A stretch of 64,000 nt of DNA from a virus (lineage: Duplodnaviria; Heunggongvirae; Uroviricota; Caudoviricetes). A model generated the notes under the pieces. That model made no database searches. It saw nothing but the letters and a program-made list of their open reading frames with translations, and had not been told where the DNA came from. The number at the start of each line of letters is the position of its first letter. Positions within the stretch are counted from its first letter, which is position 1. The stretch is from the IMG/VR virus record IMGVR_UViG_3300015262_000002, positions 39,828-103,827 of that record; one strand, written 5' to 3'. Shown here one piece after another: positions 3,275-46,193 of this stretch. The translations under genes and the position numbers were made by a program.

Positions 3275-3283
3275 GGAGTACTT

Positions 3284-27244: not shown

Positions 27245-27248
27245 TAAC

Positions 27249-27512: not shown

Positions 27513-27870
27513 GGGGTTGAGTATACTCTGTATCGTTTTGGCAACATTGCTCACAGCATCAGTAATCTCTGGTAAGTATGATCGCGAAGCACTTGATACA
27601 GCTCAGGTGAAACTGATGGAACATGTAACGTTGAACAAACGACTTAGTGAGCAAAACTTAGAACTTGCTAATGAGATTAAAAACAAGCCAAAAGAATATA
27701 TCACCATTGTAAAAGACATCGATAAAGAAGTATGTAATGGTGTTGTAAAACAACAGGCAATCAACGAACTACTGTCATCCAAGAAGGAAACTGTCAATGA
27801 AGATGCGAAGCAAAACACTGCTGACATTGATGATCGCTTGCCTAATGATTTGCTCAAGTTGCTCAAGTAA
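27481..27870 (+). CDS. i-spanin (Rz-like)
   Basis: An N-terminal TMD followed by a coiled-coil periplasmic domain. Confidence 0.55.
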   Translation: MNLILATLKSKGLSILCIVLATLLTASVISGKYDREALDTAQVKLMEHVTLNKRLSEQNLELANEIKNKPKEYITIVKDIDKEVCNGVVKQQAINELLSSKKETVNEDAKQNTADIDDRLPNDLLKLLK

Positions 27871-28099
27871 GCCACCAGAGACGATTGTAGAAACGATCTA
27901 TGTAAAGCAATACATTCCCTTGGATTTACTAAGAGTTAGTTGCCTAGAGCAACCAGCGGGCGAGACAGTGCGTTCTCTCGCAAGTTCATGGGTTAATAAC
28001 ACGAGCTGTCTTCGTGCACATCAAATTTTGGTTGAAGGATTAATTAAAAACCACACAGAAGAAGGAGCTGTCAATAATGAGCAACCCACCAGAAAGTAA
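27797..28099 (+). CDS. o-spanin (Rz1-like lipoprotein) overlapping the i-spanin 3' end in another frame
   Basis: A signal peptide with a lipobox-like LMIAC/ICSSC, and the overlapped architecture. Confidence 0.5.
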   Translation: MKMRSKTLLTLMIACLMICSSCSSKPPETIVETIYVKQYIPLDLLRVSCLEQPAGETVRSLASSWVNNTSCLRAHQILVEGLIKNHTEEGAVNNEQPTRK

Positions 28100-28394
28100 G
28101 TTACAGGAATTGATTGCAAAGTTTGGTGGTTGGGCTGGACTTGCTCTAATCTCAGTTGTTGCATTTATGTATCAAGGTGATCGTGCCAATACACAATCAG
28201 CCATTACTGGATTAGAGAAGAATATTGCAGCAAACGTAAGGGCAATTAACCGTCTGCAAGAAGGGAAAGTAAGCAGGGAAGAATTCAAGTCTGTTCAAGA
28301 ACAATGGATTCGTGAAACGATGGGATTAAGGCAGGACATTCGTGAACTTACTGGTGCTCTACGAATTGATGTAAAAGGTACAGTAAAACAATAA
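28077..28394 (+). CDS. small membrane protein
   Basis: One TMD (WAGLALISVVAFM) followed by a coiled-coil tail. Confidence 0.45.
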   Translation: MSNPPESKLQELIAKFGGWAGLALISVVAFMYQGDRANTQSAITGLEKNIAANVRAINRLQEGKVSREEFKSVQEQWIRETMGLRQDIRELTGALRIDVKGTVKQ

Positions 28395-30246: not shown

Positions 30247-31431
30247 TTAGTCTTCCTTAATTAAAAATCGGTTCGATATCACTTTAAAGCTAAAGTCACG
30301 ATTGATTGCTTTGTATACCCAACCTTCTCTCATTTTACCATTCAAACCGCTTGGTCCATCAGCATCTTCAATTGCATCTACAACTGTTGCTGGGAGAGTT
30401 ACAATACCAGCTGATGGTACAGCCTGCAAGTTGTATTTTGCAATTAGCTCAACTCGCTCTGCTGGCAACAAATACTTCTGTTTGTCAATATCAAAGATAT
30501 CATAGATGTAAAATTGGTTAGACTTGACACCTTCGAAGTTCTTCTGAATGCTTGGACCAACCATCTCACCTTGGATTGCAAGGTTACAGTTCAGGCGTAC
30601 AAGCGCATCAGTAACACCAGAGTTCTTAGCCATTTGAGTGAAAGCATTGTTATCTGGTTCAAGTTGTGTTACGAGCTTAGCATGACGGAATCCATGTTTC
30701 TTAACTTGTTTGACGTAATCACGGAACGATTGAACAAAACCTTTGTTCTCAACTTGCATACGGAACGACACATTACGAGAAGCAACGCCCAACACACTGT
30801 CTTTCAGCCAAACAGTCATAGAGCTACCGTCAAGTTTGAATGTCTTCTCAAACAGTTCACCATCTGTAACAGACTGCAAGTAACGAGGAACAATGTTCTG
30901 CACACGGTTCTGGTCAGTCTTTGGAATGAACGATGGGAATGGTTTAGTAGTACGACTTTTAACACCGTCGGAAGTACCAGCGTTATTCATTGAACGCTCT
31001 TCACCCTTCTCATACTTCAGGATACCGAGAGTCTTGGTAAAGTCCATATCAACATCACAAGTTGGACTTGCGTTGACTTCCGAAAGAGGCACACAGAAAC
31101 CTTGTGACAAATGTTTCATCAACTTTGCTGTTTTGATACGAGCATAACCACGTCCATCAATCTCAAACAACAGTTTAGAACTAAGACGATCGGCTAGTTC
31201 TGCAAATGCAGGATGTGCGGTTGGAAGTAGAGAATCAACTTCGAAATACATGCACTTGTTACCAGCAGTGTACAACCCTTTACCCACAACTACTTGCCAA
31301 CCACCGATGAGAGCCAGTTCAATGCGATCTGCCCCAGAAATTGGATGAAGTGAATCAATTTGTACAACACGAGCCAGTTTACGGTCACTCATTATATTCT
31401 CCATTTTGTTTATCAATTGCGTCTTGAACAA
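30247..31431 (-). CDS. ATP-dependent ligase-family nucleotidyltransferase, most likely an RNA ligase (DRB0094-like)
   Basis: Motif I is KLDGSS, motif IV is EGWVYK and motif V is FKVISNRFLIK. The N-terminal domain reads RVVQIDSLHPISGADRIELALIGGWQVVVGKG. Confidence 0.6.
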   Translation of the reverse strand: MFKTQLINKMENIMSDRKLARVVQIDSLHPISGADRIELALIGGWQVVVGKGLYTAGNKCMYFEVDSLLPTAHPAFAELADRLSSKLLFEIDGRGYARIKTAKLMKHLSQGFCVPLSEVNASPTCDVDMDFTKTLGILKYEKGEERSMNNAGTSDGVKSRTTKPFPSFIPKTDQNRVQNIVPRYLQSVTDGELFEKTFKLDGSSMTVWLKDSVLGVASRNVSFRMQVENKGFVQSFRDYVKQVKKHGFRHAKLVTQLEPDNNAFTQMAKNSGVTDALVRLNCNLAIQGEMVGPSIQKNFEGVKSNQFYIYDIFDIDKQKYLLPAERVELIAKYNLQAVPSAGIVTLPATVVDAIEDADGPSGLNGKMREGWVYKAINRDFSFKVISNRFLIKED

Positions 31432-31684
31432 TCAGTGTTAGTTTGTCATCGAAGTAATTAGCGAACTCAGCAACGGTCCCTTCATTGTCAGGTAACCAGA
31501 GTTCATAATTAATATCTCGCACAAGCGAATCAACACCACTCACTTGGAATGTTGTTTCTCTATATCCATAGAATTCAATATCGGAGGCAGCATTTGGGTC
31601 AAACGTACCTCTGATATTGTAGTCTTCAATGTCTTTGACATGAAATCTAATGCCGTCACTGAACCTTAAATCATATAGTTCCAA
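31385..31684 (-). CDS. hypothetical protein with a TTG start
   Basis: The only start in the ORF is TTG, and a small upstream ORF overlaps it. Confidence 0.35.
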   Translation of the reverse strand: MELYDLRFSDGIRFHVKDIEDYNIRGTFDPNAASDIEFYGYRETTFQVSGVDSLVRDINYELWLPDNEGTVAEFANYFDDKLTLIVQDAIDKQNGEYNE

Positions 31685-31790
31685 TCTTCTATACTCCTCA
31701 AACTATCTCGCAAATACACTGCTTCTTTAACCGTATTGCAGACAATGCGTTGGTAACCCGCAGTTGTCCACACCCAAAGTATATATTTCA

Positions 31791-33434
31791 TTAATCCCCC
31801 AACATCTCCCTTACTTCACGATCTAGCTGACGCACTTGCTTTCTCACAGTTTGTTTGAACATATCGTCAACGTCAAGTTCAGATGTAATCTCATGTTCAT
31901 ACTGAGTCATTACCGTACAACGTTCGATCATATGAACAACAGTTTGATTATAACCTAGCAATTTCTTAGTGCGAGTCAAAGCAACATACAACAAGTTACG
32001 TTCCATGTCCTGAAGACCAACCCACTTACCTTGTTGATCATATGGTGATGGAAAGTCATCAGCCAGAATAACAACGTCAAATTCACGACCTTTTGCCTTG
32101 TGAGCAGTAGTGAGTGTTACGTCAGGATCTTGACAGTTTTTATGTGTGGACAACACATTCAATATTTTATGAACAGAACCATTCTGAACCATATTGAATA
32201 CACGAAGCAACTCACCTTGTACGGCTTCAGCTTCAGTACCACACTCTTCCCATGATGCAAACTGTACAAGACTTTCGTGTTTAACCTTTGGAAGATTACC
32301 ACGATGAAGTTCAATTGCCGAATCAAGCAACTTGGTAAAGTCGGATACATCAATTTCCAGATTGACACGTTTGCATTGTTCCAGCAAATCAACGGCTTCA
32401 AAGATCAAGGCACCATTAGTACGGAACAACATGGTGTACTGACCATCCCAGACAGACTGGTCAAGTTCATGTTTAGGAACTGCTTGTGTGTCTAGCTTCT
32501 CCCAGCCTTTAACTGCTGTAACCTTACGACCATCACGAGCCAGAACAATGTCAGCAAGATCACCAATAACCTGACCGAAGCGGAAGCTCTTAGAGAGTTG
32601 AGTTTCTGGCCAATCTAATTGTAACATACCATTCACAGCACCACGCCACGAGTAAATGTTTTGATAGCCGTCACCTACACCAATCAACTTACAACGACCT
32701 TGTTGCTGTAGGAAGATGTCCAGCACAACTCCTGACGTATCTTGAATTTCATCAAGATACAATGTGTCGTAAACAGATAGATCGGGTTTTGATAGTTGGT
32801 ACAGCTTCAAATATGTATCATGTGTCGCCAGTACATCACTCCGTAGATCAATTCGAAGTCTCCATAGTTTCTGAGCGCAACTGAGAACCAAATACTTAAA
32901 AGCACGCATACCACTTTCACATTTAAGTAAAACTTGATCACAAGCATTGGTAGATACATGCTTATAACTAAGTTCCACATCGGGTGATTGCTCAAACTTA
33001 GCTACTGTCTCTTTGATGGCTACACCAACACCACCAGCTTTCATCTTACGGTTTTCTTTTTCACCATCAACCTTGTAGAGAAAATCACCAGTTTTGAAAT
33101 ACTTTGCTATTTCTGTCCCTGTCCCTGCAACATTCTTGTAAGCACCTTGTGGACGCTTTAGTTTGTGTTGAAGTTGTACACCAAACGAAGCATACGCCAA
33201 ACTATGCGTTGTTCTACAGGTCACCCACGACGGAAACTTCTCCTTAGCTTCATCGGCTAAAGATTTGTTAAAAGTCAACATCAAACTATTTTGAGGATTC
33301 TCATTGGCAATCATGCACAATGTTGAAGTCTTGGTGCACCCAGCGTAAGCCTTAATAAGTAACTCACTGTGAAGCCTCGACATTTTAACAGCATTTAGTT
33401 GCTCTTCTGTTGGTACAATTGCACTTGTCATCAA
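31791..33434 (-). CDS. SF1 UvrD/Rep-like helicase
   Basis: Motif II reads LYLDEIQDTSG, and a C-terminal UvrD-like region reads TLTTAHKAKGREFDVVIL. The Walker A is atypical (AGCTKTST). Confidence 0.65.
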   Translation of the reverse strand: MMTSAIVPTEEQLNAVKMSRLHSELLIKAYAGCTKTSTLCMIANENPQNSLMLTFNKSLADEAKEKFPSWVTCRTTHSLAYASFGVQLQHKLKRPQGAYKNVAGTGTEIAKYFKTGDFLYKVDGEKENRKMKAGGVGVAIKETVAKFEQSPDVELSYKHVSTNACDQVLLKCESGMRAFKYLVLSCAQKLWRLRIDLRSDVLATHDTYLKLYQLSKPDLSVYDTLYLDEIQDTSGVVLDIFLQQQGRCKLIGVGDGYQNIYSWRGAVNGMLQLDWPETQLSKSFRFGQVIGDLADIVLARDGRKVTAVKGWEKLDTQAVPKHELDQSVWDGQYTMLFRTNGALIFEAVDLLEQCKRVNLEIDVSDFTKLLDSAIELHRGNLPKVKHESLVQFASWEECGTEAEAVQGELLRVFNMVQNGSVHKILNVLSTHKNCQDPDVTLTTAHKAKGREFDVVILADDFPSPYDQQGKWVGLQDMERNLLYVALTRTKKLLGYNQTVVHMIERCTVMTQYEHEITSELDVDDMFKQTVRKQVRQLDREVREMLGD

Positions 33435-34009
33435 GAGTTACCCTTTGTGATTCTGTTGTAGTTGATCAAAGAATCAAATGCTTTTTCATCAATCTGATCC
33501 TTGAACTTTGTAGCCAGCTCTTTTATTCGTGAAATCTTAGCTGTTCGGTATACAGCAAATGCTTCTTCCTGTGAATCGTATCTTCCTAGATTCTTATTCT
33601 TTCCATTGTATGCCAATGATGCCATATATTTTCCACCGTTTAAACTCACACCAGATGGACAATCACCAACATTCACCCTGTTCGATTGCAGGGCAATATT
33701 AACACTTTTCGGCAGAAGACAGCAAGTGTCTTCGCTATAAACAGTACCATCACCTAAAAGGTCTTTATCGAGGTGAATACCGTCCAAACCATAACCGACT
33801 TGATTAGTCACCCACTCATAGAATACATCATAGTCTGCCCAGCTTTGTTGATATGTCGTACCTTTGTATGTTGGATACTTTAACCAATACGCTTCACTAC
33901 AGCGTTCCAACATATGTCTCCAATGAGAGTATGCAGGATTAGCTTTGTTGTTTCCAGCAGAAACTTTTGTGGGGTTGATCCATTTATTAGGTCTACCCAT
34001 TATTAACAC
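33431..34009 (-). CDS. HNH/AP2-type homing-endonuclease-like protein
   Basis: An AP2-like region reads GKYMASLAYNGKNKNLGRYDSQEEAFAVYRTAK. It is paralogous to 58769-59374. The start is GTG or an internal ATG. Confidence 0.5.
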   Translation of the reverse strand: MLIMGRPNKWINPTKVSAGNNKANPAYSHWRHMLERCSEAYWLKYPTYKGTTYQQSWADYDVFYEWVTNQVGYGLDGIHLDKDLLGDGTVYSEDTCCLLPKSVNIALQSNRVNVGDCPSGVSLNGGKYMASLAYNGKNKNLGRYDSQEEAFAVYRTAKISRIKELATKFKDQIDEKAFDSLINYNRITKGNS

Positions 34010-35669: not shown

Positions 35670-36005
35670 GGGCAACCTTGAAGCAGACAAAGCTTCTCGC
35701 ACTGAGAAAGAAATGTCTCGCACTCACCGGCTCAGTGTTAAAGGTTATGAAGAGGGACGATCCTAGACCAACCTCAGTCTGAGTTCACTACAGGGGATCA
35801 TACCGGAAACGGGAGGGGTGAACAATCTAGCAATGCTCTTGCATTGTTGCTACACATATTGTAGCCTGACAACGACTCAAGAAGACGTTAAAGTCAGTCA
35901 GATAGTCAAACAGAGTTCTTAGGCATCAAGTTATTGGTGTATGGACCCTGTAGGATCAGTCTGTCTACTGACTTTTGATCTAAGAAGATATAGGAGAAGC
36001 AGTGT

Positions 36006-36209
36006 ATGGAAAGACCTACAACAGCCTTATGGGATAAGAGTTATCGTCAAGACATGTTAGATTGGTGTACTTGGAATGTCAGTAACACAACGATTGACAA
36101 CCTTCCTGAATTCATGAGATGGTTCATGCGACAAGAGAACGGTAAGATGAACCCACAATACATACAGGATGCATGGGAGAAGAAAGATGTTGACAAACTG
36201 GTTGGATAA
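36006..36209 (+). CDS. hypothetical protein
   Basis: ORF with an AGGAGAAG SD. Confidence 0.5.
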   Translation: MERPTTALWDKSYRQDMLDWCTWNVSNTTIDNLPEFMRWFMRQENGKMNPQYIQDAWEKKDVDKLVG

Positions 36210-36284
36210 CTTCATTATGCTCATCGCCAGACACGGAAAGACAGAGTGTATGGAATGCGGAACATTTAAGCCTAAAGGAACACC

Positions 36285-36578
36285 TTGCAGATGTCGATCT
36301 ACGATGAAAAGTTTATGCAGTTGCACAAAGCATTAAGAGCAATGTCTGATGTGATTTTGGAATTCCACACTGGCTCCAGTGAATCAACTCAGAAACTTGA
36401 GTTGGAGATGTATAAGCTTGATGAATTAATGAAAGGTGTTGATGTCACTGTTGACATGGTTCATGATCTTCGTAACCTTACAGGTGAAGGAATGATGGCT
36501 TGTCGTAAAGCATTAATTCAAGCTCGTGGTGATGAAGAGAAAGCAGTTGACTATCTCAGAACTTCAGGTAACATCTAA
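36285..36578 (+). CDS. hypothetical protein whose C-terminus carries an EF-Ts N-terminal-like signature
   Basis: LRNLTGEGMMACRKALIQARGDEEKAVDYLRTSG closely matches the EF-Ts N-terminal signature (one deviation, R for K). Confidence 0.5.
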   Translation: MQMSIYDEKFMQLHKALRAMSDVILEFHTGSSESTQKLELEMYKLDELMKGVDVTVDMVHDLRNLTGEGMMACRKALIQARGDEEKAVDYLRTSGNI

Positions 36579-36579
36579 C

Positions 36580-36696
36580 ATGTTCAATCTAGTAGTGGTT
36601 CATGTGATATTGGTTCTATTCGTTGTCAACTTAATCATTGGTTGTTTTCTTGTTGTACGTGGTGTACGATACTCGAAAATCATATCACTTGTTTAG
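36580..36696 (+). CDS. small hydrophobic peptide of 38 aa
   Basis: Its ATG lies 2 nt after the upstream stop, and the entire ORF is hydrophobic. Confidence 0.25.
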   Translation: MFNLVVVHVILVLFVVNLIIGCFLVVRGVRYSKIISLV

Positions 36697-36792
36697 GTGC
36701 TCTTCTTATATACGAATCGCAATACATGATTAAAGAGTTGATTACAGTAATCAAAGAATTTTCGAAATAACTGATTGACAGGAGAAAATTAA

Positions 36793-37116
36793 GTGGCGTA
36801 TCGTAAGCTTGAAGTGAAAGATGTTGTAAAGGTTAGTAAATACGGTCATGAAAACCATGGTATGTTTATGGTAGTTGAATATGTGAGTGGTGATTCGGTA
36901 AGACTAAACAACCAAGAGTGGTTTTACCAGAAAGACTTGTTGTTGTCTGTTCACGAGAAGGTTGAGGATTATGAGGCTTGGTTGAAACGTTTCGACAGCC
37001 TTGATAGTGAAGATCTAAACTTTCCTGACAATGAAGAGTTGTACAAAGGTAATTTGCTTGAACGGATTGTAAAACTCGAACAAGAAATTGTTGACTTGAA
37101 GAAACGACTAACGTAG
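36793..37116 (+). CDS. hypothetical protein with a C-terminal coiled coil
   Basis: ORF with a GTG start. Confidence 0.4.
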   Translation: MAYRKLEVKDVVKVSKYGHENHGMFMVVEYVSGDSVRLNNQEWFYQKDLLLSVHEKVEDYEAWLKRFDSLDSEDLNFPDNEELYKGNLLERIVKLEQEIVDLKKRLT

Positions 37117-37287
37117 ACTTCACCAACTCAAACAACAACTTACCATTAGGGGATATTTGTGGAACAGTCTTTGAAAGCAATGCAGGAACGTAATGTACAA
37201 CGTGAAAATGATTTGCGTGTGATGGCTACACTTGTTGACCAACTTGCATTGATTCCCAACGAGTTTAAAACAAAACGAAAATAAAGC

Positions 37288-37316
37288 TTGACGATGTATA
37301 CCAACCTCTGTATAAT
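37288..37316 (+). promoter_or_regulatory. sigma70 promoter, TTGACG-N17-TATAAT, driving the tRNA-like RNA
   Basis: Hexamers were read from the sequence. Confidence 0.5.
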
Positions 37317-37330
37317 TGGTGACATAAAAA

Positions 37331-37494
37331 GACACGGTGATGGAATTGGTAGACAGACTGGAGGATTCAGTATAAGGTGACAGTTACTGATGATACCGGG
37401 GTGATTCACAGGTAAACGTCCTGTAAGGTTAGCTTTAAGCACAACAGTGAAACGTACTGTGTAGCATGTGGGTTCGACTCCCACCCGTGTCACC
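37331..37494 (+). ncRNA. 164-nt tRNA-like RNA
   Basis: A perfect 7-bp terminal acceptor stem (GACACGG/CCGTGTC), a Leu-type D-loop (GGAATTGGTAGAC), and a canonical T-arm (GTGGG-TTCGACT-CCCAC). An internal ~80 nt contains two near-identical hairpins. Confidence 0.5.
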
Positions 37495-37644
37495 TTATTT
37501 AAAACAGATGGAGAGCTTCTGTGATCAAGTTTAAACCACTCCGAATGGAGTATGGATGTAAGCGTTGTGGTAGTAGCTTCCTTTGCGTCTGTGATTGACA
37601 CAGAGCTTCGCAAACATTAAATTTTAAAACACTAGGAGAAACAC

Positions 37645-38553
37645 TTGAAAATTAGCAATCTGATCAAAGCTTCCGCACTATCACTGGCTGCAACACTCAT
37701 GGTTGGTTGTGGTGAGCGAGTTGAAGTACCACCGGGTTTTGTTGGCAAGATCATGACGAAGGATGGTTATCAAGAAGGTTTGATTCCGACTTCGAAACTT
37801 CGGTTGTCACCATGCATGAACTACTGTGATCGAATGGTCATCATGGACAACACGGATAAGAGCTATGTCGAGCCAATGGAAATCTTCATTCCAGCTGACA
37901 AGCTGAACATCAAGGTTGACCTTCGTGCTACTCTGGCTGTTGATCCACAACGTGCTGAGCCTTTGTTCAACAAGCTTCCACAGGTTACACAAGGTGATCA
38001 ACTGTCAGTAATCTCTGGTGAGAGTATCTACAACACTTACGGTAAGCAGGTGCTGCAAGCTGAAGTTCGATCTTATCTGACCAAGTACACCATTTCGGAA
38101 ATTGCTTCCAATGGTGAGAAGATCAACGCTGACATTCAAGTACTGTTGTCGAAAGTAATGGGTGACCGTACACCGTTTACTGTTCGATATGCTGGTCTGA
38201 CTAACATCAAGTATCCAGAAATCATTACTCAGGCTCAAGAGAACAGTGCAAAACGTCGCGAAATGATTGCTCAGGAAGAAGCACAACTGGAAGTAAGTAA
38301 GGTTCAGCTGTCTCGTGAACTGCAAGAAGCTAAAATGCAACGTGCAATTGACAAAGAGAAAGCTGAGACTGAAGCACAAGCACAACTTGTACTGGCAGCT
38401 GCTGTAGATCCACGATCCTTGCGCATCAAAGAGCTTGAGATTGAAAAGATCAAAGCTGAAGCTTGGGATGGTGCATACCCTAAAACAATGGTTTTCGGTA
38501 GCAATGGTCAAGGTGCTTCGATGATTATGGACATGCGTGACAACAGCAAGTAA
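37645..38553 (+). CDS. SPFH (band-7/prohibitin/HflKC-like) domain lipoprotein
   Basis: TTG start with an AGGAG SD. A signal peptide ends in lipobox LMVGC. An SPFH-like core is followed by an Ala/Glu/Gln-rich coiled-coil C-terminus. Confidence 0.55.
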   Translation: MKISNLIKASALSLAATLMVGCGERVEVPPGFVGKIMTKDGYQEGLIPTSKLRLSPCMNYCDRMVIMDNTDKSYVEPMEIFIPADKLNIKVDLRATLAVDPQRAEPLFNKLPQVTQGDQLSVISGESIYNTYGKQVLQAEVRSYLTKYTISEIASNGEKINADIQVLLSKVMGDRTPFTVRYAGLTNIKYPEIITQAQENSAKRREMIAQEEAQLEVSKVQLSRELQEAKMQRAIDKEKAETEAQAQLVLAAAVDPRSLRIKELEIEKIKAEAWDGAYPKTMVFGSNGQGASMIMDMRDNSK

Positions 38554-38607
38554 TATTGAATATGAGCGGCTGACTATATGCGGTCGCTCATTCACTAAGG
38601 AGTTGTA

Positions 38608-38922
38608 ATGGTTCTGCTACTTAACATCTTGGTTCCGCTTGTTGTAATTGCTTTGTTGTATCTTGCTTGGCGATTGAAGAACTGGCACCCAGCGTTGATT
38701 GCAATAGTCTTTGTAGTTGCATATGGTGCATTTCAACCAAGTTACATTCCAAAAGGTACAGTTAAACCACTTCCAAATCCTGAGTTCCACGTCAATGACT
38801 CACCAATGGTTGATCGACTGATGAAACCAAAGTCTGGTGCTGAATATGACGCAGAACGTAACAAGGCACTTGAAGAAATTAACACAAGCATTAACGAACA
38901 AATCAAATTGAATCCGAAGTAA
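38608..38922 (+). CDS. small membrane protein, possibly a short NfeD-like partner
   Basis: Two N-terminal TMDs and a soluble C-terminal domain, with the gene immediately downstream of the SPFH gene. Confidence 0.4.
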   Translation: MVLLLNILVPLVVIALLYLAWRLKNWHPALIAIVFVVAYGAFQPSYIPKGTVKPLPNPEFHVNDSPMVDRLMKPKSGAEYDAERNKALEEINTSINEQIKLNPK

Positions 38923-38925
38923 TGA

Positions 38926-38963
38926 GAGCCCTGCCCAATGCAACCATTGTGTGGGGCTTTTTC
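38926..38963 (+). terminator. terminator-like hairpin followed by a T-run
   Basis: GAGCCC...GGGGCTTTTT. Confidence 0.45.
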
Positions 38964-38981
38964 ACATCTGGTGGAAAGCTA

Positions 38982-39010
38982 TTGACAGAATTGAATTTCA
39001 ACAGTAGAAT
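38982..39010 (+). promoter_or_regulatory. sigma70 promoter, TTGACA-N17-TAGAAT
   Basis: Hexamers were read from the sequence. Confidence 0.5.
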
Positions 39011-39040
39011 CTGAATTCAATCAATTAAGAGGGAATTTGT

Positions 39041-39373
39041 ATGAAACGATTTATTGTCACAGGTGTTGGTGTATTGCTCACGGTTTCAGCATTAATGTTC
39101 AATCAAGCTCATGCCAATTCTTTGTGTGATTCGCAAAAAACTATGGCAGAAGAAACCATGCGATTTCGTCAATCTGGTGGCGCCCGTAGTGAGCTTGACG
39201 CTGTTGTATACTCTGAGCAAGGTCAAGCCATTGCCGACATGGCCTTTGCTCGTGGTGTGGTTCCTGAGTCGTCAAAACGCACAGCAATTAAGGGTTTTGC
39301 TGACTATGTTGAAGGTCTTTGTCAGAAAGTAACAAAATCGGAGCCAACAGGTGTTGCAGGTATTCGAACCTAA
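39041..39373 (+). CDS. secreted/periplasmic protein with a signal peptide ...AHA-NS
   Basis: An N-terminal hydrophobic signal with an AxA cleavage motif. Confidence 0.5.
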   Translation: MKRFIVTGVGVLLTVSALMFNQAHANSLCDSQKTMAEETMRFRQSGGARSELDAVVYSEQGQAIADMAFARGVVPESSKRTAIKGFADYVEGLCQKVTKSEPTGVAGIRT

Positions 39374-39409
39374 GTGTATACTGATCTCAAATCACAAAGG
39401 ATGCACGAC

Positions 39410-39598
39410 ATGACTACCGAAGAAATCAAGATTGCATTTGAAGAATGGTATACGGAAGAATACAGTTCTTCGATTCGTCGTGGGATGCGTGGTCGTGCAA
39501 GCATTCACCTACAAGAATATGAGGGTGAATACATTTCAGACCATGCCCGTAATGACTTCAAGGTGTGGACAGCAGCAATCAAGAGGATGATCAAATGA
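39410..39598 (+). CDS. hypothetical protein
   Basis: Start chosen 10 nt after the AAGGA SD. An alternative ATG is at 39401. Confidence 0.4.
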   Translation: MTTEEIKIAFEEWYTEEYSSSIRRGMRGRASIHLQEYEGEYISDHARNDFKVWTAAIKRMIK

Positions 39599-39843
39599 AA
39601 TACGTAGTTGTTCGAAATGAAGACGGTAAAGAAGAGTTTTTCATGTTCCCGAAACATATCAACCATGATGACTTCGCTGAAGTACTGAGCCACATCAAAG
39701 TGCATACCGGTTTCCGTGACTGGGAACGTCAGTATCGAGAACCTATTGCTGCGGGCTTCACAGATGGTAAGAAGTGCACAGGTTGTAGTGAAACACTTAA
39801 CCTCGACTCTCGTGGTCGTCTTGATGAAATGTTGATAGGGTGA
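39595..39843 (+). CDS. hypothetical protein
   Basis: ATGA overlap with the upstream gene. Confidence 0.45.
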   Translation: MKYVVVRNEDGKEEFFMFPKHINHDDFAEVLSHIKVHTGFRDWERQYREPIAAGFTDGKKCTGCSETLNLDSRGRLDEMLIG

Positions 39844-40067
39844 ATGAAATGAGCTTTACAGGACTTGGGCAACACACGAAACAACTGAGGTTGGACGCTG
39901 AACGTTATCACAAGCTTCGTTCATGGATGTCAAGTGGTGTACAAGAGGGTTGGGATGAGGTTACAAAGCTTGCCGCTGTTGCCCAATATCTTAGCTGGGA
40001 TGACTTCGACAGGCAGCTTGACAGCCTTCCTGAGTGCAATGTAGGTCTGTGTGAGGTACGGGTATGA
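39840..40067 (+). CDS. hypothetical protein
   Basis: ORF overlapping its neighbour. Confidence 0.4.
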   Translation: MNEMSFTGLGQHTKQLRLDAERYHKLRSWMSSGVQEGWDEVTKLAAVAQYLSWDDFDRQLDSLPECNVGLCEVRV

Positions 40068-40381
40068 ACTACGGTCTGAAAGAATACAAAGAACTTCTTG
40101 AGAAGAACCTTCGCGAGCTTAGTGATCCAATGTGTGTACCTTTCGGTATGGACCCTTTTAGTAATCAGGCGCTAGATTATCGTCAGGCTAAGATCGAGAG
40201 TATCAACTACGCACTTGAGATGCTTCCTGAAATCAAAGTACCAAAAGTACCGATGAAAGATCATGAATTCCGTGATCAAGTTAATGAATTGCTTATATTA
40301 ACTCGGACATATGGTCACACTCAACAACTTCGAACTCACCTGCGTTCATTCCTACTTAACTTCAAGGATAAGTGTAAATGA
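40064..40381 (+). CDS. hypothetical protein
   Basis: ORF overlapping its neighbour. Confidence 0.45.
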   Translation: MNYGLKEYKELLEKNLRELSDPMCVPFGMDPFSNQALDYRQAKIESINYALEMLPEIKVPKVPMKDHEFRDQVNELLILTRTYGHTQQLRTHLRSFLLNFKDKCK

Positions 40382-40638
40382 GTAGATTGAGATACCATGA
40401 GTTGGATCGTAGCGATGAACTGGAAATGATTCTGTCGAATCGCAAACTTCCGTATTACCAAAACGAAAGAGTTAAACTTGAAAAGACAGTCCTTGATGCC
40501 CAAGATAAACTTCAAGCTTATGACCTTTCTGTCAAACGTCAAGATCGTTGGATCAGGTTGTTGAAAGATTCATTGGTTCATCATTGGATTGATAATCCAG
40601 ATGCGTACATAAAAGAATGGGAAGCTAACAATGAGTGA
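40378..40638 (+). CDS. hypothetical protein
   Basis: ORF overlapping its neighbour. Confidence 0.45.
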   Translation: MSRLRYHELDRSDELEMILSNRKLPYYQNERVKLEKTVLDAQDKLQAYDLSVKRQDRWIRLLKDSLVHHWIDNPDAYIKEWEANNE

Positions 40639-40804
40639 TCAAGCATGGGCGATACAAGCAATGTTCAAATACAGGTTGCAAGTAGACTTTAGTAGGCGTA
40701 CAATTGAATGTCGTGGATTTAACCATGTTTTTCAATGGGACGATGTTGAAACTGACTTCTATCAAGCCTTACAAATTGCAATTTCAAACATTGAGAAATA
40801 TTGA
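40631..40804 (+). CDS. small ORF of 57 aa
   Basis: ATGA overlap with the upstream gene. Not in the ORF track. Confidence 0.3.
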   Translation: MSDQAWAIQAMFKYRLQVDFSRRTIECRGFNHVFQWDDVETDFYQALQIAISNIEKY

Positions 40805-40968
40805 TGATTAAATTAATTCGATTCCTGTTAGGTCTATGTAATCACAAGTGGGAAGTTTATGAAAAAGGTCCAGTTTCAGATAGATCGAAACCCAGTATGA
40901 TAATTGGGTTTTGGACAAGATCTAACTGTACAAAGTGTGGTAACCATAAGTATAAACAACATTTCTAA
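40804..40968 (+). CDS. small Cys/His-rich ORF of 54 aa with a putative Zn ribbon (CNHKW...CTKCGNH)
   Basis: Not in the ORF track. The Cys pattern was read from the translation. Confidence 0.3.
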   Translation: MIKLIRFLLGLCNHKWEVYEKGPVSDRSKPSMIIGFWTRSNCTKCGNHKYKQHF

Positions 40969-40976
40969 GGATTATC

Positions 40977-41204
40977 ATGAAATTTGATCTTACCAAGATT
41001 GACCTGCAAATGATGAAAGACATTGATAGTCTTGAAGACAACCATGGTAATAAAGGTGTTGTCTGGATGCGTGATGATTGGTTGTCGATGCGAGGTTATG
41101 CTTTCTATAGTGATCGTGCACAGTATGACTTTGCTGAGCTTGTTGCACAATTAAAAGAAGTCATGATCCACGAGGGTTATGAGTTTAACTGCGACAAATA
41201 CTAG
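40977..41204 (+). CDS. hypothetical protein
   Basis: ORF with an SD. Confidence 0.45.
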   Translation: MKFDLTKIDLQMMKDIDSLEDNHGNKGVVWMRDDWLSMRGYAFYSDRAQYDFAELVAQLKEVMIHEGYEFNCDKY

Positions 41205-41216
41205 AGGAGAGATTGT

Positions 41217-43127
41217 TTGACTGAAAGTTTGATTCAAAAGGTAATTAAACATTATCATCCTAAATATGATGGTAGTGACAAAATTCTATGCCCGTTCCAT
41301 AAAGAACATAGTCCATCATTCAACGTGTATCACCACCAGAATACTTATTACTGTTTCGGGTGTGGTGCTGGAAGTACGGTAATTGATTTTGTTGCAGACA
41401 GTGAAGGTTTGGACGTTAAGGTTGAGTTCAAGAAAGCTCGTGACATTACCTTGGGTATTCTTGGTTTAACAAATGAGCAATTTCAAGAGGAGAGAAAGAA
41501 AGTGAGTGATGGGCAAGTACAGACAATTGATTGTCTTCCAGCAATGAGTGATGAGGAAGTTAAAGCGTTCATTCAAAGCGCTCACCGGGAAATCAATGGA
41601 CGCAAAGTAAGTGGTTACAATGGTATGGGTTATCGTGGGATTAAAGATGAATATCTGAAGTTCTTCGGTCACCTAACTAAGAAAGATGACGATGGTAAAG
41701 TAATTAGTCGTCATTATCCTGAAACTAACACCAAAGGTAAGTTGGCTGGTTACAAATGCCGTAATCACCCTAAAGACTTCCGTTATGGTAATGTCGGTAG
41801 TACTGGTGGTAAGAACCAACTAAGTGGTCAGATTAAATACTCTGGTCATAACAAGTACATCTTGATCGTTGGTGGTGAAGAGGATAAAGTTGCAGCATAT
41901 CAGATGTTCGAAGAGAACCGTGCTGGTAAAGGTAACATTGCACCTGTTCATGTGGTGAGTCCAACATGTGGTGAGAACAGTGCAGTTAAGCAGATTGCTG
42001 CTCAGTATTCATTCTTTGACATGTATGAACAAATCATCATTGGTGTGGATAATGACGAAGCTGGACGTAAAGCAGCTGCTGACATTGCAGCAGTATTGCC
42101 GAAAGAGAAAGTTAAGGTAGTTGTCTGGACTGGTAAAGATCCAAACAAGATGTTGGAAGATGGGCTTGCCTCGACATTTGTTCGTGACTTCTATAATGCT
42201 AAACCATTGATTGCCAGTGGTATTAAAGAAAGTACTGATTCGATGGATTCTGTTCGTGAAGAACTGATGCGTCCACGTATTCAACTTCCACCAGAATGGA
42301 AAGCTGTACAAGATGCAATGAAAGGTGGTATTCGTCAGGGTTCTATTGTCAACATCATTGGTGACACATCCGTTGGTAAGTCCACACACGTTAACGGACT
42401 GAACTACTTCTGGATGTTTAACGCACCACAGAAAGTTGGTGTTGTAAGTTTGGAAATGACTGAAGGTCAATATACTCTTGACTTGCTTTCACTTCACCTT
42501 GAGAAGAACTTGGCATGGATTGGTGAAGGTGTTGATATTCTTGAGTATCTTGATCGTCCAGATGTTAAAGCACTGTATGACAACTTGCTTGTTGATGATA
42601 CTGGTCAACCACGTTATGCAATCTTGGATGAACGAGATGGTGACCTTAAACTGCTTGAGCGTCAGATTGAAAAACTGATTCACCAACACGGTTGCAAGAT
42701 CATTGTTATTGACGTACTGACCGACATTCTCCGTGGTGCTAACAGTGATATGCAAGAAGACCACATGCGGTGGCAGAAGCAGATTGTCAAGACAGGTGTT
42801 ACGATTGTAAACGTTCTACACACACGTAAACCTCAGAACTCAGATGGTTCGTGGCGGAAAGCATCAGAATATGATGCATTGGGTAGTGGTACGTTTGTGC
42901 AATCAGGTGCGTACAACATCGTTATCAGTCGGGATAAGATGAACCCTGATCCAATCATTCGTAACCTGACACATGTGGACCTTCCGAAGTGTCGTGGTGG
43001 TGAGACTGGTGAGATTATGCAACTGATCTATGACATCGAAACCCGTCAGACAATGGATTATAACAATTGGCTGAACAAACATATTGATAAGACATTGAAT
43101 CCACAAGTACCAGAAGTAGAGTTTTAA
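41217..43127 (+). CDS. bifunctional DNA primase (DnaG Zn-finger plus TOPRIM) / DnaB-like helicase (T7 gp4-like)
   Basis: Zn finger CPFHKEHSPSFNV...CFGCGAG, TOPRIM ILIVGGEEDK...GVDNDEAG, and Walker A GDTSVGKST. TTG start with an AGAGGAGAG SD. Confidence 0.8.
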   Translation: MTESLIQKVIKHYHPKYDGSDKILCPFHKEHSPSFNVYHHQNTYYCFGCGAGSTVIDFVADSEGLDVKVEFKKARDITLGILGLTNEQFQEERKKVSDGQVQTIDCLPAMSDEEVKAFIQSAHREINGRKVSGYNGMGYRGIKDEYLKFFGHLTKKDDDGKVISRHYPETNTKGKLAGYKCRNHPKDFRYGNVGSTGGKNQLSGQIKYSGHNKYILIVGGEEDKVAAYQMFEENRAGKGNIAPVHVVSPTCGENSAVKQIAAQYSFFDMYEQIIIGVDNDEAGRKAAADIAAVLPKEKVKVVVWTGKDPNKMLEDGLASTFVRDFYNAKPLIASGIKESTDSMDSVREELMRPRIQLPPEWKAVQDAMKGGIRQGSIVNIIGDTSVGKSTHVNGLNYFWMFNAPQKVGVVSLEMTEGQYTLDLLSLHLEKNLAWIGEGVDILEYLDRPDVKALYDNLLVDDTGQPRYAILDERDGDLKLLERQIEKLIHQHGCKIIVIDVLTDILRGANSDMQEDHMRWQKQIVKTGVTIVNVLHTRKPQNSDGSWRKASEYDALGSGTFVQSGAYNIVISRDKMNPDPIIRNLTHVDLPKCRGGETGEIMQLIYDIETRQTMDYNNWLNKHIDKTLNPQVPEVEF

Positions 43128-43168: not shown

Positions 43169-43945
43169 ATGATAAAATATGTAACTCAAGTAGGACTTGT
43201 TAACATAACAACACATTATCTATTTGTGACATGGAGAATGATGAATGTCAGATGTTTCGATCCTGAGCATAAGGCTTATCACAGATATGGTGGTCGAGGT
43301 ATCTATGTGTCTAATGAATGGCGTTGGGATAATCCATTAGGATTCAAAAACTTTATTGGTGTGGTTGGTGATCGACCTTTTGGTACTACTTTGGATCGTG
43401 AAAACAACGATCAAGGGTACAGTCCTTTAAATTTCAGATGGGTTGATAAGAAAACACAGCAGAACAACATGGGTATTGGTATCTCAAATAACTCAGGCGA
43501 CATGGGTGTAAGTTGGTGTGACCGATATAACATGTGGGTGGCGCAAATTGTACTGAATGGTGAAACAAAACTAATTGGTAATTTCAATAAAGAGGATAAA
43601 GAATTAGCTGTTGAATTGTATAACAGTGTTAAAGCTGTTAAAATTGAGCAAGGTGACAACGCTGCACTCAAATACGCGAAATCTAGAATGAATTTAAGTC
43701 CAGTTGGTAAGGTTATTCGACGAAACAAGACATCTCAGTTTTATGGAGTAGCTTGGGATAAATCTCGTGACAAGTGGCGAGCCATGGTTTCGTACCGTGA
43801 GACAGAAACAGGTGAACTCATAAACAAGTTTATCGGTCGGTATGATTGTGAGAATACTGCTTATGAAAATGTAATTCTGTTTTTGGAGTGGGTTGACTCA
43901 AACGGGTTCTTCAAGAAAAAGGTAAAGGAGAAATGTAATGGTTGA
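43169..43945 (+). CDS. HNH homing-endonuclease-like protein with AP2-type DNA-binding repeats
   Basis: The WRMMNVRC...YHRYGGRGI motif is followed by repeats such as GVSWCDRYNMWVAQI and YGVAWDKSRDKWRAMVSY. The gene is inserted between the primase-helicase and the polymerase. Confidence 0.5.
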   Translation: MIKYVTQVGLVNITTHYLFVTWRMMNVRCFDPEHKAYHRYGGRGIYVSNEWRWDNPLGFKNFIGVVGDRPFGTTLDRENNDQGYSPLNFRWVDKKTQQNNMGIGISNNSGDMGVSWCDRYNMWVAQIVLNGETKLIGNFNKEDKELAVELYNSVKAVKIEQGDNAALKYAKSRMNLSPVGKVIRRNKTSQFYGVAWDKSRDKWRAMVSYRETETGELINKFIGRYDCENTAYENVILFLEWVDSNGFFKKKVKEKCNG

Positions 43946-46193
43946 TGACCTTATTGGTCTGTTGCCTGATGGTAAGACTGAATATTTTAAAAATGACATT
44001 TGCTACGATTTAGAAACCTATCCGAACTGCTTCACTTTCTCAGCTTGCTTTGCAAATGGTAAAGGTATGAGAACCTATGAAATATCAGACCGGAAAAATG
44101 AACTTGAGGAAATGCTTGAGTTCATGCGCAACATTGCCAAGAACGACTTTCGAATGATTTCTTTCAACGGTTTAGGGTTTGACTATCCAGTGCTACATGA
44201 CATTTTGGAGAAAAGTAAAGTAGCAAGGAAAGAAGGAAAGAAGCTCAACATTACAGCTTCTGAAATATACAGTAAAGTCTGCAAGATGTTCGAACAGATG
44301 AAGTTCAACAAGTTCGGTACTGCTGTTAGATCCAGCGAAGTAATGTTGAAACAGGTTGACCTGTTTAAGATAAAACATTTCGATAATAAAGCAAAGATGA
44401 CAAGTTTGAAAATGTTGGAATTCAACATGCGATCTAAGAACATCGAAGACTTACCATTTCCGGTCGGGATGCGTTTGAATGACCAGCAGAAAGATGTTCT
44501 GATTGAGTACAACAAACACGATGTTATGGAAACATTAAAGTTCTACTACAAGATTTTTGATGAAATCAAGATGAGGAATGAGCTTACTACTCAATTCGGT
44601 TTCGATTGTACAAATCTGAATGATACGAAATTGGGAAAGGAACTATTCGTACAACGGTTGGAAGCTGCCAAACCCGGTATTTGTTTCAAGATGGAAAAGA
44701 AAGGTCCACGAATGGTGCGTAAGATGCAACAGACCAAACGTGAGTCCATTGATCTAGGTGAGTGCATTCTGCCTTACATCAAGTTTGATCGTCCTGAGTT
44801 TCAAGCCATCCACAAGTGGTTTAGTGAACAGACCATCACAGAGACTAACGGTGTGTTCTCCGACTTGGAAGAGCATCAGTTGGGTGATGTGGCAAAGTAT
44901 GCGAACATGAAAGTCAAGATGAAGAAGTTCAATTGCCCAGAACAAGGTGCAAAGAACAAGCGATATGTTCCAACCGAGGCACATGTACTTGAGATGTTGG
45001 CTGAGCACCCACTTGGTTGGGTTGAAGCTGTTGAACTCAAGAGTCCAAAGGGTGCTGCAAGTTATTGGTTCTGCTGGAGAATTACAGCTGGCGTAGCTGG
45101 TATTGACGACAAGAAAACTAACAGTAGTCCACTCAATGTGGTTATTGATGGTTTCCAGTATGACTTTGGAACGGGTGGGATTCACGGGTGCAAGAAAGGT
45201 GTTACTGAGTCTGGTAATGGTAAACGTATTTACACACTTGACGTAAAGTCGTATTATCCAAACCTGAGTATCAAGAATAAGATTTACCCTGAGCACCTTG
45301 ACGTACTGTTCTGTAATGTGTATGGTGATTTGTATATCGAACGAAGTAGTCACCACAAGAAGTCTGCATTGAACAAAGCTTTGAAGCTGGCACTCAATGG
45401 TACGTATGGTGCTTCTGGTGATGAATTCAGTCCAATGTATGATCCTAAGTTCATGATGAGCATTACGATCAATGGTCAACTGTCTCTATGCATGTTGATG
45501 GAGAAACTGATTGCTCAAGTTGGTGCAGAAGTACTTATGTGCAACACCGATGGTTTTGAGTTTGTGGCTGCTGAAGATCCTAAGACAAAGAAACTCATTG
45601 ACAAGCTGGTAACTGAATGGGAGACTCTGACTGGATTGGAGATGGAAGGCGCTCTGTATGACAAGATGATGTCTGCCAACGTAAACAACTACATTGCTGT
45701 ATTCAAAGGTGGTGAAGTAAAGCGTAAAGGTGCATACGAGTTTAAAGACTTGGACTGGCATAAAAACCAATCGGCTTTGGTCGTCAAGATGGCTGCTGTG
45801 CACGAGCTGCTGGGGTTTGGAGACGCTGAAGACTTGATCCGTAAGCATGATGACCCTTTCGACTTTATGTTGCGTACAAAGGTTCCTAGGAGTTCTAAGC
45901 TAGTGTTGTTCAATGAAGAGACAGGAGAAGAGAAGCAGTTGCAAAACATCTGCCGATACTATCCATCGGTTCATGGTGGTAAGTTGATTAAACTCATGCC
46001 CGCATTGGAAGGTAAAGAGCTTGAGGGTGACCGTCGTATGTCCATTGATGCTAAATGGAATGTCACGCCTTGCAATGACATGGCTGACTTCAGTTGGGGT
46101 ATCAACTATGATTACTATGTGCAGGAAGCTAAGAAGCTTGTGGCTGCAATCCATGGTGATGTAGAGATTGATGACGAAGGTGAAGAAGACTGA
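43938..46193 (+). CDS. DNA polymerase with an N-terminal 3'-5' exonuclease domain and family-B-like motifs
   Basis: Exo I reads YDLETY and Exo II reads SFNGLGFDYPVL. Polymerase motifs read DVKSYYPNL (DxxSLYPS-like), KLALNGTYG (KxxxNSxYG-like) and MCNTDGFEF. Confidence 0.6.
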   Translation: MVDDLIGLLPDGKTEYFKNDICYDLETYPNCFTFSACFANGKGMRTYEISDRKNELEEMLEFMRNIAKNDFRMISFNGLGFDYPVLHDILEKSKVARKEGKKLNITASEIYSKVCKMFEQMKFNKFGTAVRSSEVMLKQVDLFKIKHFDNKAKMTSLKMLEFNMRSKNIEDLPFPVGMRLNDQQKDVLIEYNKHDVMETLKFYYKIFDEIKMRNELTTQFGFDCTNLNDTKLGKELFVQRLEAAKPGICFKMEKKGPRMVRKMQQTKRESIDLGECILPYIKFDRPEFQAIHKWFSEQTITETNGVFSDLEEHQLGDVAKYANMKVKMKKFNCPEQGAKNKRYVPTEAHVLEMLAEHPLGWVEAVELKSPKGAASYWFCWRITAGVAGIDDKKTNSSPLNVVIDGFQYDFGTGGIHGCKKGVTESGNGKRIYTLDVKSYYPNLSIKNKIYPEHLDVLFCNVYGDLYIERSSHHKKSALNKALKLALNGTYGASGDEFSPMYDPKFMMSITINGQLSLCMLMEKLIAQVGAEVLMCNTDGFEFVAAEDPKTKKLIDKLVTEWETLTGLEMEGALYDKMMSANVNNYIAVFKGGEVKRKGAYEFKDLDWHKNQSALVVKMAAVHELLGFGDAEDLIRKHDDPFDFMLRTKVPRSSKLVLFNEETGEEKQLQNICRYYPSVHGGKLIKLMPALEGKELEGDRRMSIDAKWNVTPCNDMADFSWGINYDYYVQEAKKLVAAIHGDVEIDDEGEED

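Follow-up and report, generated by a model that had tools for sequence, protein, structure and literature searches.

What is the role of an SPFH protein, and of the small membrane protein encoded directly behind it, in a tailed phage? The question is raised by two adjacent genes of the stretch analysed here, 64,000 nucleotides (nt) of a Caudoviricetes virus (positions 39,828 to 103,827 of IMG/VR record IMGVR_UViG_3300015262_000002; hereafter the window). The first gene encodes a lipoprotein of 302 amino acids (aa) of the SPFH/Band 7 type and the second a 104-aa hairpin membrane protein, hereafter the partner (Table 1). A first-pass annotation of the window had taken them for an SPFH-NfeD pair, as known from bacterial membrane microdomains. 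We suggest, with confidence a little above even, that the pair is a self-contained envelope module of a different kind, an HflK/C-like SPFH scaffold on the periplasmic face with a dedicated membrane partner.

The large protein is matched by Pfam PF01145 (Band_7) with E=1.8e-8 and 35.1 bits, against a gathering cut-off of 23.6, over profile positions 3-172 of 176. Its N-terminus is positively charged, next hydrophobic, and ends in the lipobox L-M-V-G-C. The helical region that overlaps the end of the SPFH domain is 56% A+E+Q+K (residues 192-273), and the conserved residues W274-x-G276-x-x-P279 come next, ahead of a disordered C-terminus. The AlphaFold model, built from 38 homologs, has a mean predicted local distance difference test (pLDDT) of 74.8 and consists of a signal helix, strands in 32-123 and 178-189, helices 125-175, 192-253 (62 residues) and 256-273, and a disordered end. 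Comparison of the model with the PDB by Foldseek gives 52 matches at E<=0.001, and the matches listed are all SPFH-family or major vault proteins. The best E-value belongs to human prohibitin (8rrh, E=1e-10) and the best TM-scores to E. coli HflK/C (0.60/0.65 to 9cz2_XA; also the FtsH-complex protomers 7vhq and 7wi3), with QmcA (E=2e-8), stomatin, erlin and flotillin among the further matches. Many of the alignments span the whole protomer (260-330 aligned columns), and residues 192-273 align with the coiled-coil wall in the protomers of HflK/C, prohibitin, stomatin and QmcA; across the significant matches, identity is 11-20%. Judged from its model, the large protein is a genuine SPFH protein and a complete protomer. 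The lipoprotein signal, the SPFH core and the coiled-coil tail that had been read from the letters alone are all confirmed. Since the prohibitin, HflK/C, stomatin, QmcA, erlin and flotillin matches were all solved as ring or cage assemblies, it is reasonable to expect by analogy that the phage protein oligomerises too.

A database of 5.8 billion proteins holds 602 homologs of the SPFH protein at E<=1e-3, and PF01145 is present in 120 of 120 among the matches listed. The 602 homologs, together with 197 representatives related to the partner, make it clear that neither open reading frame (ORF) is a chance one. The protein also matches phrog_200 ('lipoprotein') with E=2e-46 and 159.8 bits, residues 5-301 falling on profile positions 83-363 of 379. 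A scan of both proteins against NCBIfam gave nothing meaningful, the HflK and HflC equivalog models being without a match at E<=1, and the window, like each locus examined, has only one SPFH gene. C22, G23, C57 and C61 are invariant in the 38 homologs. The PROSITE-type lipobox rule is satisfied in 48 of the 54 homologs examined; among these 48, Gly stands at +2 in 43 and a C-x(2-8)-C pair is found in 44. Within the SPFH domain, the C57/C61 pair is consistent with a periplasmic disulfide.

The partner is indeed a protein with two transmembrane domains (TMDs), as had been noted, encoded after a gap of 54 nt. Two hydrophobic helices lie at its N-terminus (aa 2-23 and 27-42), and its AlphaFold model (pLDDT 77.1) contains helices 2-23, 27-42 and 77-101, an extended stretch 43-76 and zero beta strands. 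With no strand there is no oligonucleotide/oligosaccharide-binding (OB) fold, and therefore the barrel that defines NfeD is absent. The family has a defining motif, Q-P-S-Y-x-P-K-G, directly behind the second TMD. Across the 105-sequence alignment N6 and P44 are each kept in 104 sequences, Y46, P48 and K49 in 102 and G50 in 96; in the tail, patches of higher conservation are F60-E, D69-R-x-x-K-P and E-E-R-D. A HMMER scan of 1.84 billion representatives recovered the 197 relatives, and the 150 listed are all stand-alone proteins of about 60-139 aa without fusion to another domain.

A canonical microdomain pair would require the 104-aa protein to be a short NfeD whose C-terminal OB fold binds the SPFH ring. 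Its resemblance to NfeD is limited to N-terminal TMDs ahead of a soluble tail and to a gene adjoining an SPFH gene, as in short NfeD proteins. The NfeD profile PF01957 has no match in the window partner, in any of 16 close homologs (E<=10) or in any of the 105 sequences of the broad family (E<=0.01). Searched against all PDB sequences, the partner profile finds no solved NfeD, only CHAT-domain matches at E~0.1 that are taken as noise, and Foldseek returns nothing at E<1 from a PDB library in which the QmcA-YbbJ SPFH-NfeD complex 8z5g is included. Profile and structure searches, which the first-pass annotation had proposed as the check, hence found the SPFH similarity but not the NfeD similarity. 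At about 60-139 aa, the listed relatives leave no room for an OB fold beside two TMDs. Moreover, NfeD is reported only with the cytoplasm-facing types SPFH1, SPFH2 and SPFH5, not with SPFH3, 4 or 6-12, and was not found with the periplasm-facing HflK/C type (Hinderhofer et al., PMC2636767), whereas the SPFH protein here is predicted to be exported. We consider the NfeD explanation very improbable; on its sequences and model, the partner is not NfeD and belongs to a stand-alone hairpin family unrelated to it.

One further identity of the partner, FxsA, was tried and rejected. It goes back to a 2003 annotation of KVP40.0338 (locus L004, 2919-3278), whose note 'match to PF04186' (FxsA) looks spurious; current Pfam gives no match at E<=1, and PF04186 matches no window-type partner. 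The note 'flap endonuclease-1; Provisional' on PAK_P3 gp040 (locus L054, 379-744), a 121-aa two-TMD protein, looks spurious as well.

The linkage of the genes argues for a two-component system. We compared 54 loci: 24 viral and 18 bacterial ones encoding SPFH relatives, plus annotated regions of isolated phages. A small gene for a two-TMD protein adjoins the SPFH gene in all 54 of them, so that a conserved small membrane partner, as first supposed, is borne out. The profile of the window partner has a same-strand match directly downstream in 45 of 50 loci, and no bacterial locus of the 18 is without one (in the bacterial locus L046 the match is marginal, E=5e-3). The five profile-negative loci (KVP40, XacN1, Alteromonas PT11-V22, L030 and L031) have at the same position an ORF of 103-139 aa with two N-terminal TMDs and a hydrophilic tail; profile-profile comparison by hhalign supports homology of these ORFs to the window partner (probability 84%, E=7e-6), weak at best in these five loci. 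In another 4 of the 54 loci only the architecture corresponds, and in 3 of them the ORF is upstream. In the most distant subgroup, PAK_P5/PAK_P3, RisingSun and Miami, with 27-29% SPFH identity, a two-TMD ORF of 114-121 aa lies directly upstream with a 4-bp overlap; in the T5-like Vibrio phage X1 a two-TMD ORF lies immediately downstream. The adjacency thus spans T4-like, T5-like, jumbo and ~100-kb phages as well as bacteria, even where the gene order is reversed. An overlap of 4 bp is common among the SPFH-partner pairs and points to translational coupling.

The pair also moves as a unit. Among the Comamonadaceae loci, nucleotide similarity of most locus pairs is limited to ~1.1 kb, which is the two genes, and in Comamonas the flanks, some of them phage-like, diverge even at 98-99% SPFH identity. 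Around the locus on the C. testosteroni chromosome no flanking ORF is syntenically kept elsewhere, and two have non-syntenic matches of 37-40%. The Comamonas flanks include an Arc-like repressor, an AntA antirepressor, an HSDR_N protein and five different tRNA genes, and in L024 a tyrosine integrase stands immediately downstream of the pair. This integrase was sought in the bacterial loci and is present in L024 only, and therefore we claim carriage by prophages for some loci and not for all. Judging by these flanks, at least some of the bacterial copies are cargo of prophages or integrative elements, and the pair behaves as a mobile unit between unrelated phages and bacterial islands.

On which side of which membrane would the two proteins meet? 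The SPFH protein is predicted to be exported and lipid-anchored at Cys22. In the partner, the loop between the helices carries on average 3.2 K+R against 0.28 D+E (96 sequences), and the first five residues are without K or R; the positive-inside rule therefore places the loop in the cytoplasm and both ends in the periplasm. The near-invariant N6 and the QPSYxPKG motif are then predicted to sit at the periplasmic surface of the membrane or just beyond it, with the tail of ~60 residues in the periplasm. The SPFH domain and the partner motifs would meet on the periplasmic side, which is the side of HflK/C and opposite to that of the NfeD-linked SPFH proteins. The Comamonas homologs L035, L040 and L048 are without the lipobox Cys (…LVLAG-ERVEIPP vs …LAAC-GQKVEVPP) and keep a Sec-type hydrophobic N-terminus; their SPFH proteins may be either signal-anchored or cleaved by signal peptidase I. 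These Cys-less variants and the position of the partner motifs favour an inner-membrane location of the lipoprotein.

Hence, we suggest the following mechanism. The module would probably be transcribed by the host RNA polymerase before the late genes. The lipoprotein would oligomerise via its long helix into a ring or cage like those of HflK/C, prohibitin, stomatin and QmcA, and this cage would lie on the inner membrane at its periplasmic face. The hairpin partner would insert with its two ends facing the periplasm and the positively charged loop facing the cytoplasm, so that N6, QPSYxPKG and the 60-residue tail are placed where the lipid-anchored SPFH domain meets the membrane. There, embedded in the membrane, it may anchor or nucleate the cage or be its resident client, supplying in trans the transmembrane (TM) element that HflK/C carry in cis, in a manner analogous but not homologous to NfeD. 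To the advantage of phage or prophage, the assembled module would wall off a patch of the inner membrane or stabilise it.

The expression of a distant relative fits early action. PAK_P3 gp041, annotated Band_7 in GenBank, is 28% identical to the window SPFH protein over 265 residues (E=3e-29). Its normalised transcript counts are 38,887, 31,493 and 18,215 at 3.5 min of infection and 26,547, 22,853 and 12,613 at 13 min, with a log2 fold change of -0.51 that is not significant (PMC4933390, S5 table). The PAK_P3 SPFH gene is thus highly transcribed from the onset of infection, and its transcription persists. In the window the pair sits in a plus-strand block of small genes (~36000-41000), ahead of the replication genes and behind sigma70-like promoters, so that the early-region placement first given to it holds; regions of this layout would be of the kind read early by host RNA polymerase.

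What the walled-off patch would be for is the weakest step. Our tentative proposal, held with rather low confidence, is protection of the infected or lysogenic envelope, as superinfection exclusion or as a measure against abortive infection, directed at incoming DNA or membrane-targeting effectors. We favour a protective role because of the early strong expression, the carriage by virulent as well as temperate elements and the integrase-adjacent position in one prophage. A bolder version, which we rate somewhat lower still, is a 'split HflK': a distinct and undescribed SPFH system with its hairpin TM element in trans, carried as a mobile cassette by virulent phages of many lineages and by Comamonadaceae prophages or islands, that fences off inner membrane and blocks entry of superinfecting DNA or membrane-acting abortive-infection effectors. 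If that were true, it would be the first assigned function for any viral SPFH protein. As an exclusion or anti-defence device the pair would tie SPFH membrane compartmentalisation to phage-host conflict, and if it acted on FtsH it would give viruses a handle on a central protease. What defines a tractable system here is the invariant non-NfeD partner and the cassette behaviour, the SPFH gene in phages being already known. The conserved partner and the joint mobility turn an annotation curiosity into a defined two-component system, one that is small, easily cloned and abundant early, and so open to test.

Several observations weigh against the proposed scaffold or its protective role. Adjacency proves co-inheritance and not physical contact, and homology of the upstream ORF of the PAK_P5 type to the window partner is not demonstrable (hhalign 20%), which leaves it an architectural equivalent only. 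Both AlphaFold models are monomers of moderate confidence. Asp at +2 is the classical inner-membrane retention signal, and in its absence the enterobacterial default is sorting to the outer membrane. None of the SPFH homologs has Asp at +2, and Gly at this position is not a classical retention signal; from the sequence, an outer-membrane anchor of the lipoprotein is possible. The upstream two-TMD gene of PAK_P3, gp040, has ~330-3,700 counts (PMC4933390, S5 table), 10-20 times below the SPFH gene next to it. This gap in reads and the hairpin between the two genes of the window argue against a strict 1:1 wall. Neither protein matches the PADLOC defence models, and a literature search for the function of phage SPFH proteins found genome reports only and no functional study.

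Other explanations share parts of this evidence. The most closely related one is that the pair mimics HflK/C toward host FtsH, with a periplasmic cage that encloses or excludes the protease and shifts substrate turnover in favour of phage development. The best superposition is indeed on HflK/C protomers of FtsH complexes (9cz2, 7vhq, 7wi3) and the predicted periplasmic orientation is the same, so that FtsH could be the specific target of the scaffold proposed here. As an explanation of its own we regard it as unlikely: there is no HflK or HflC match in NCBIfam, one SPFH gene stands in place of a K/C paralogue pair, a lipid anchor replaces the TM helix, the sequence offers nothing that addresses FtsH, and a dedicated conserved partner suggests that the enclosed or anchoring element is supplied by the phage itself. 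If the anchor were in the outer membrane, the lipoprotein could act at the receptor or periplasmic entry step, as in exclusion of the Llp/Cor/Sp type, with the partner tail reaching out from the inner membrane in an envelope-spanning arrangement. The missing Asp at +2 in every homolog would fit this, as would the L024 pair, which adjoins an integrase at the end of a prophage, where exclusion genes typically lie, and, if it is related, a prophage-borne HflK/C-like Pasteurella protein reported in outer-membrane vesicles (PMC9872710). We nevertheless think it rather improbable, since the Sec-type N-terminus of the three Comamonas homologs cannot give an outer-membrane lipid anchor, the conserved motifs of the partner lie at the inner-membrane surface, and solved SPFH assemblies sit on the membrane that holds their anchor.

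No closer to probable is the simpler idea that the SPFH protein alone is a general stabiliser of the membrane in infection and the small membrane protein is merely co-inherited. It would account for the 10-20-fold transcript difference in PAK_P3, for the insertion of an ORF of 62-91 aa between the genes in 8 related phage loci, and for partner sequences that diverge beyond recognition in distant phages. It is harder to reconcile with adjacency in every locus across lineages and in either order, with the frequent 4-bp overlaps, with the restriction of similarity to the two-gene unit in most Comamonas locus pairs and with the near-invariant surface motifs of the partner. A lipoprotein beside a small inner-membrane protein also superficially recalls an o-spanin with its i-spanin, and the pair might accordingly be spanin-like or regulate the timing of lysis. 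We consider this lysis-related explanation highly improbable: the SPFH lipoprotein has 302 aa and a defined SPFH fold, the partner has two TMDs, the gene order is opposite to that of spanins, and the PAK_P3 homolog is abundant at 3.5 min. A structural or lysis function in related phages had been named at the outset as what would speak against an SPFH-NfeD role; the window has its own complete lysis cassette (26687-28100, plus strand), ~10 kb from the pair, which lies in a non-structural block. We rejected a spanin or lysis role because of where the pair lies and how it is built. SPFH proteins have been found by mass spectrometry in jumbo-phage virions (PMC7760394), and a virion-structural role was rejected on the export signal, the non-structural block and the early expression of the PAK_P3 homolog.

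By analogy, the scaffold proposed here would work on a principle closest to that of HflK/C and would resemble SPFH-NfeD operons in layout, and it misses defining features of both. With HflK/HflC (SPFH3) it has in common the structure of the whole protomer (SPFH domain, long helical wall and C-terminal cap region), the periplasmic orientation, predicted here, and the lack of an NfeD partner. It differs in that HflK/HflC have a TM helix and are two paralogues, whereas here a single gene encodes a lipid-anchored protein without an equivalog match; the encoding by a phage or mobile cassette and the dedicated two-TMD protein are further differences. In the SPFH-NfeD operons (QmcA-YbbJ of E. coli, 8z5g; the P. 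horikoshii stomatin PH1511 with PH1510; FloA-NfeD) the SPFH gene likewise stands beside the gene of a small membrane protein with N-terminal TM helices and a soluble tail, and QmcA is among the structural matches given above; the anchoring or oligomerisation role of the partner may be analogous. The NfeD signature and the OB fold are absent here, and NfeD-linked SPFH proteins face the cytoplasm, unlike the exported protein of the window. The eukaryotic and viral prohibitin, stomatin and flotillin cages include the top Foldseek E-value (8rrh), but at 11-20% identity and with a different anchoring and compartment. In a two-component spanin a small lipoprotein is encoded in or after the gene of a single-TMD coiled-coil protein; here the 302-aa lipoprotein comes first and its partner has two TMDs.

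Direct relatives of the SPFH protein are the phrog_200-type and annotated Band 7 proteins of phages: KVP40.0339, PAK_P3 gp041, XacN1 ORF080, PT11-V22 ORF42, RisingSun gp131 and Miami gp157. Lipobox and adjacent small two-TMD gene are common to them and to the window protein, and nothing essential differs. In tblastn, relatives appear in 138 GenBank phage records, with 27-82% identity among the matches listed. Their hosts are Vibrio (60 records, KVP40 included), Pseudomonas (54) and Aeromonas (11), the remaining ones being Erwinia, Klebsiella, Acidovorax, Alteromonas, Variovorax, Xanthomonas and Stenotrophomonas; several are already labelled 'SPFH domain / band 7' or 'stomatin-like'. The nearest isolates infect Pseudomonas poae, P. 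gessardii and P. plecoglossicida, with an SPFH identity of 69-82%, the 82% being reached by Boevelstad and vB_PseuGesM_254, phages of fluorescent and putida-group Pseudomonas. The window SPFH protein is identical to that of a 103,845-bp metagenomic contig. About 100 further SPFH homologs lie mostly on contigs of up to ~100 kb, and BFVD holds Band 7 proteins of many other phages and of giant viruses. SPFH ORFs of T4-like phages were listed in 2006 (PMC1524935), and later papers call the role of SPFH proteins in phages poorly understood or unclear (PMC7760394; PMC13239085). The gene is, on sequence comparison, an ordinary member of a known and annotated phage family, and the view of the first-pass annotation that such a gene is unusual in a phage must be given up. 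A description of the conserved hairpin partner was not found in the literature searched, the coverage of which was incomplete.

The pair has the layout of a short transcription unit. Each gene has its own Shine-Dalgarno sequence, AGGAG 7 nt 5' of the TTG start of the SPFH gene and AAGGAG 5 nt 5' of the ATG of the partner gene. Two sigma70-like matches, found by consensus matching alone and both putative promoters, stand 5' of the pair; the distal one had been called strong, and it keeps 11 of the 12 consensus positions. The hairpin between the genes may be an attenuator or a processing site. A terminator scan of 36500-39600 called none; direct folding then revealed the hairpin 3' of the partner gene, which the scan had missed because its stem is longer and less perfect than the scan permits. 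The next promoter match after the pair is at 38982-39010. With putative promoters 5' and with the terminator-like hairpin and the next promoter match 3', the pair therefore looks, on sequence, like a single short unit of transcription. At the nucleotide level, 37200-39400 has no megablast match among GenBank phages, and relatives are therefore detectable at the protein level only.

Table 1. Positions in the window of the pair, its sequence elements and the lysis cassette
Feature	Position	Strand	Remarks
Endolysin	26687-27244	+	185 aa; phrog_7, E=1e-33; hydrophobic N-terminal stretch, signal-anchor-like
Holin candidate	27249	+	87-aa TM protein; lysis cassette
i-spanin-like protein	27481	+	129 aa, TM and coiled coil; lysis cassette
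o-spanin-like protein	27797	+	100 aa, lipobox-like N-terminus; overlapping; lysis cassette
Distal sigma70-like promoter match (putative)	37288..37316	+	TTGACG-17-TATAAT, 11/12 consensus; 5' of tRNA-like element and pair
Non-canonical tRNA-like element	37331..37494	+	between distal promoter match and SPFH gene; membership of the unit uncertain
Proximal sigma70-like promoter match (putative)	37595..37623	+	TTGACA-17-TAAATT, 10/12 consensus; 22 nt 5' of SPFH start
SPFH/Band 7 lipoprotein gene	37645..38553	+	302 aa, TTG start
Predicted lipoprotein signal peptide (aa 1-21) and lipobox Cys22	37645..37710	+	LMVG-C, Gly at +2; from sequence
SPFH (Band_7) domain, aa 28-215	37726..38289	+	PF01145; holds C57/C61 pair (C-x-x-Y-C)
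Ala/Glu/Gln/Lys-rich helical (coiled-coil) region, aa 192-273	38218..38463	+	from AlphaFold model and composition
Intergenic RNA hairpin	38557..38594	+	-17.9 kcal/mol, z=-3.4; without T-run
Partner gene	38608..38922	+	104 aa, ATG start; hairpin membrane protein
Family-defining motif Q-P-S-Y-x-P-K-G, aa 43-50	38734..38757	+	directly after TM2; 105-sequence alignment
Terminator-like hairpin into TTTTT	38924..38962	+	-20.3 kcal/mol, z=-2.95; closes the two-gene unit

The tRNA-like RNA that had been noted in front of the pair exists, and it is non-canonical. Its acceptor stem of 7 bp is perfect (GACACGG/CCGTGTC), its D-loop is Leu-like (GGAATTGGTAGAC) and its T arm, followed by ACC, is canonical (GTGGGTTCGACTCCCAC); ~70 nt are extra in the anticodon or variable region. 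Default ARAGORN does not call it; relaxed settings give 'tRNA-Stop(tta)' with a 69-nt insert, and the calls for relatives are inconsistent (Ile, Val). The Rfam scan of 36500-39500 returned only a 15-bit fragment of a tmRNA T arm, and the folding energy of the element is not better than that of shuffles. In the relatives L010 and L008 its two ends are 97% and 87% conserved and the middle is much shorter. In XacN1, tRNA genes stand directly upstream of the Band 7 gene.

Elsewhere in the window, the virion genes are on the plus strand, among them the gene of a central tail fibre of 1,499 aa (19625-24124). Ahead of them, at 964-2281 (+), there is a cluster of seven tRNA genes, all canonical (Met, Gly, Asn, Asp, Thr, Pro, Ser). 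The o-spanin-like gene of the lysis cassette is followed by a further 105-aa TM protein, so that this region extends to 28394 (+). RNA ligase, helicase and an HNH endonuclease are encoded on the minus strand at 30247-34009, and the block of small genes that holds the pair is followed by a primase/helicase (41217-43127), an HNH endonuclease and the DNA polymerase (43938-46193). The two HNH endonuclease genes (phrog_953/374; 33431-34009 on the minus and 43169-43945 on the plus strand) lie within replication modules, one adjoining the helicase and the other between primase/helicase and DNA polymerase, and they resemble inserted homing endonucleases.

A soluble ORF of 62-91 aa is inserted between the SPFH and partner genes, which are otherwise no further apart, in eight related phage loci (L001 4419-4640, L003 4419-4658, L008, L010, L012, L013, L019 and L029). 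These ORFs have a common C-terminal motif (…GLSW.TFF…) and no Pfam match, and the ORF is absent from the window. Directly 3' of the pair, at 39041-39373 (+), the window encodes a protein of 110 aa whose signal peptide looks cleavable (…NQAHA/NS). It has its own promoter match, the 11/12 sigma70-like one at 38982-39010, and matches phrog_2315 (E=5e-8), where no function is assigned. Signal-peptide proteins with the same 'RQSGG' motif are also found 3' of the pair in the related loci L009 and L023; a different signal-peptide protein, of 126 aa, takes this place in the loci of SYP type (L002, L015-L018). The region 3' of the pair may thus be a small cluster of exported proteins.

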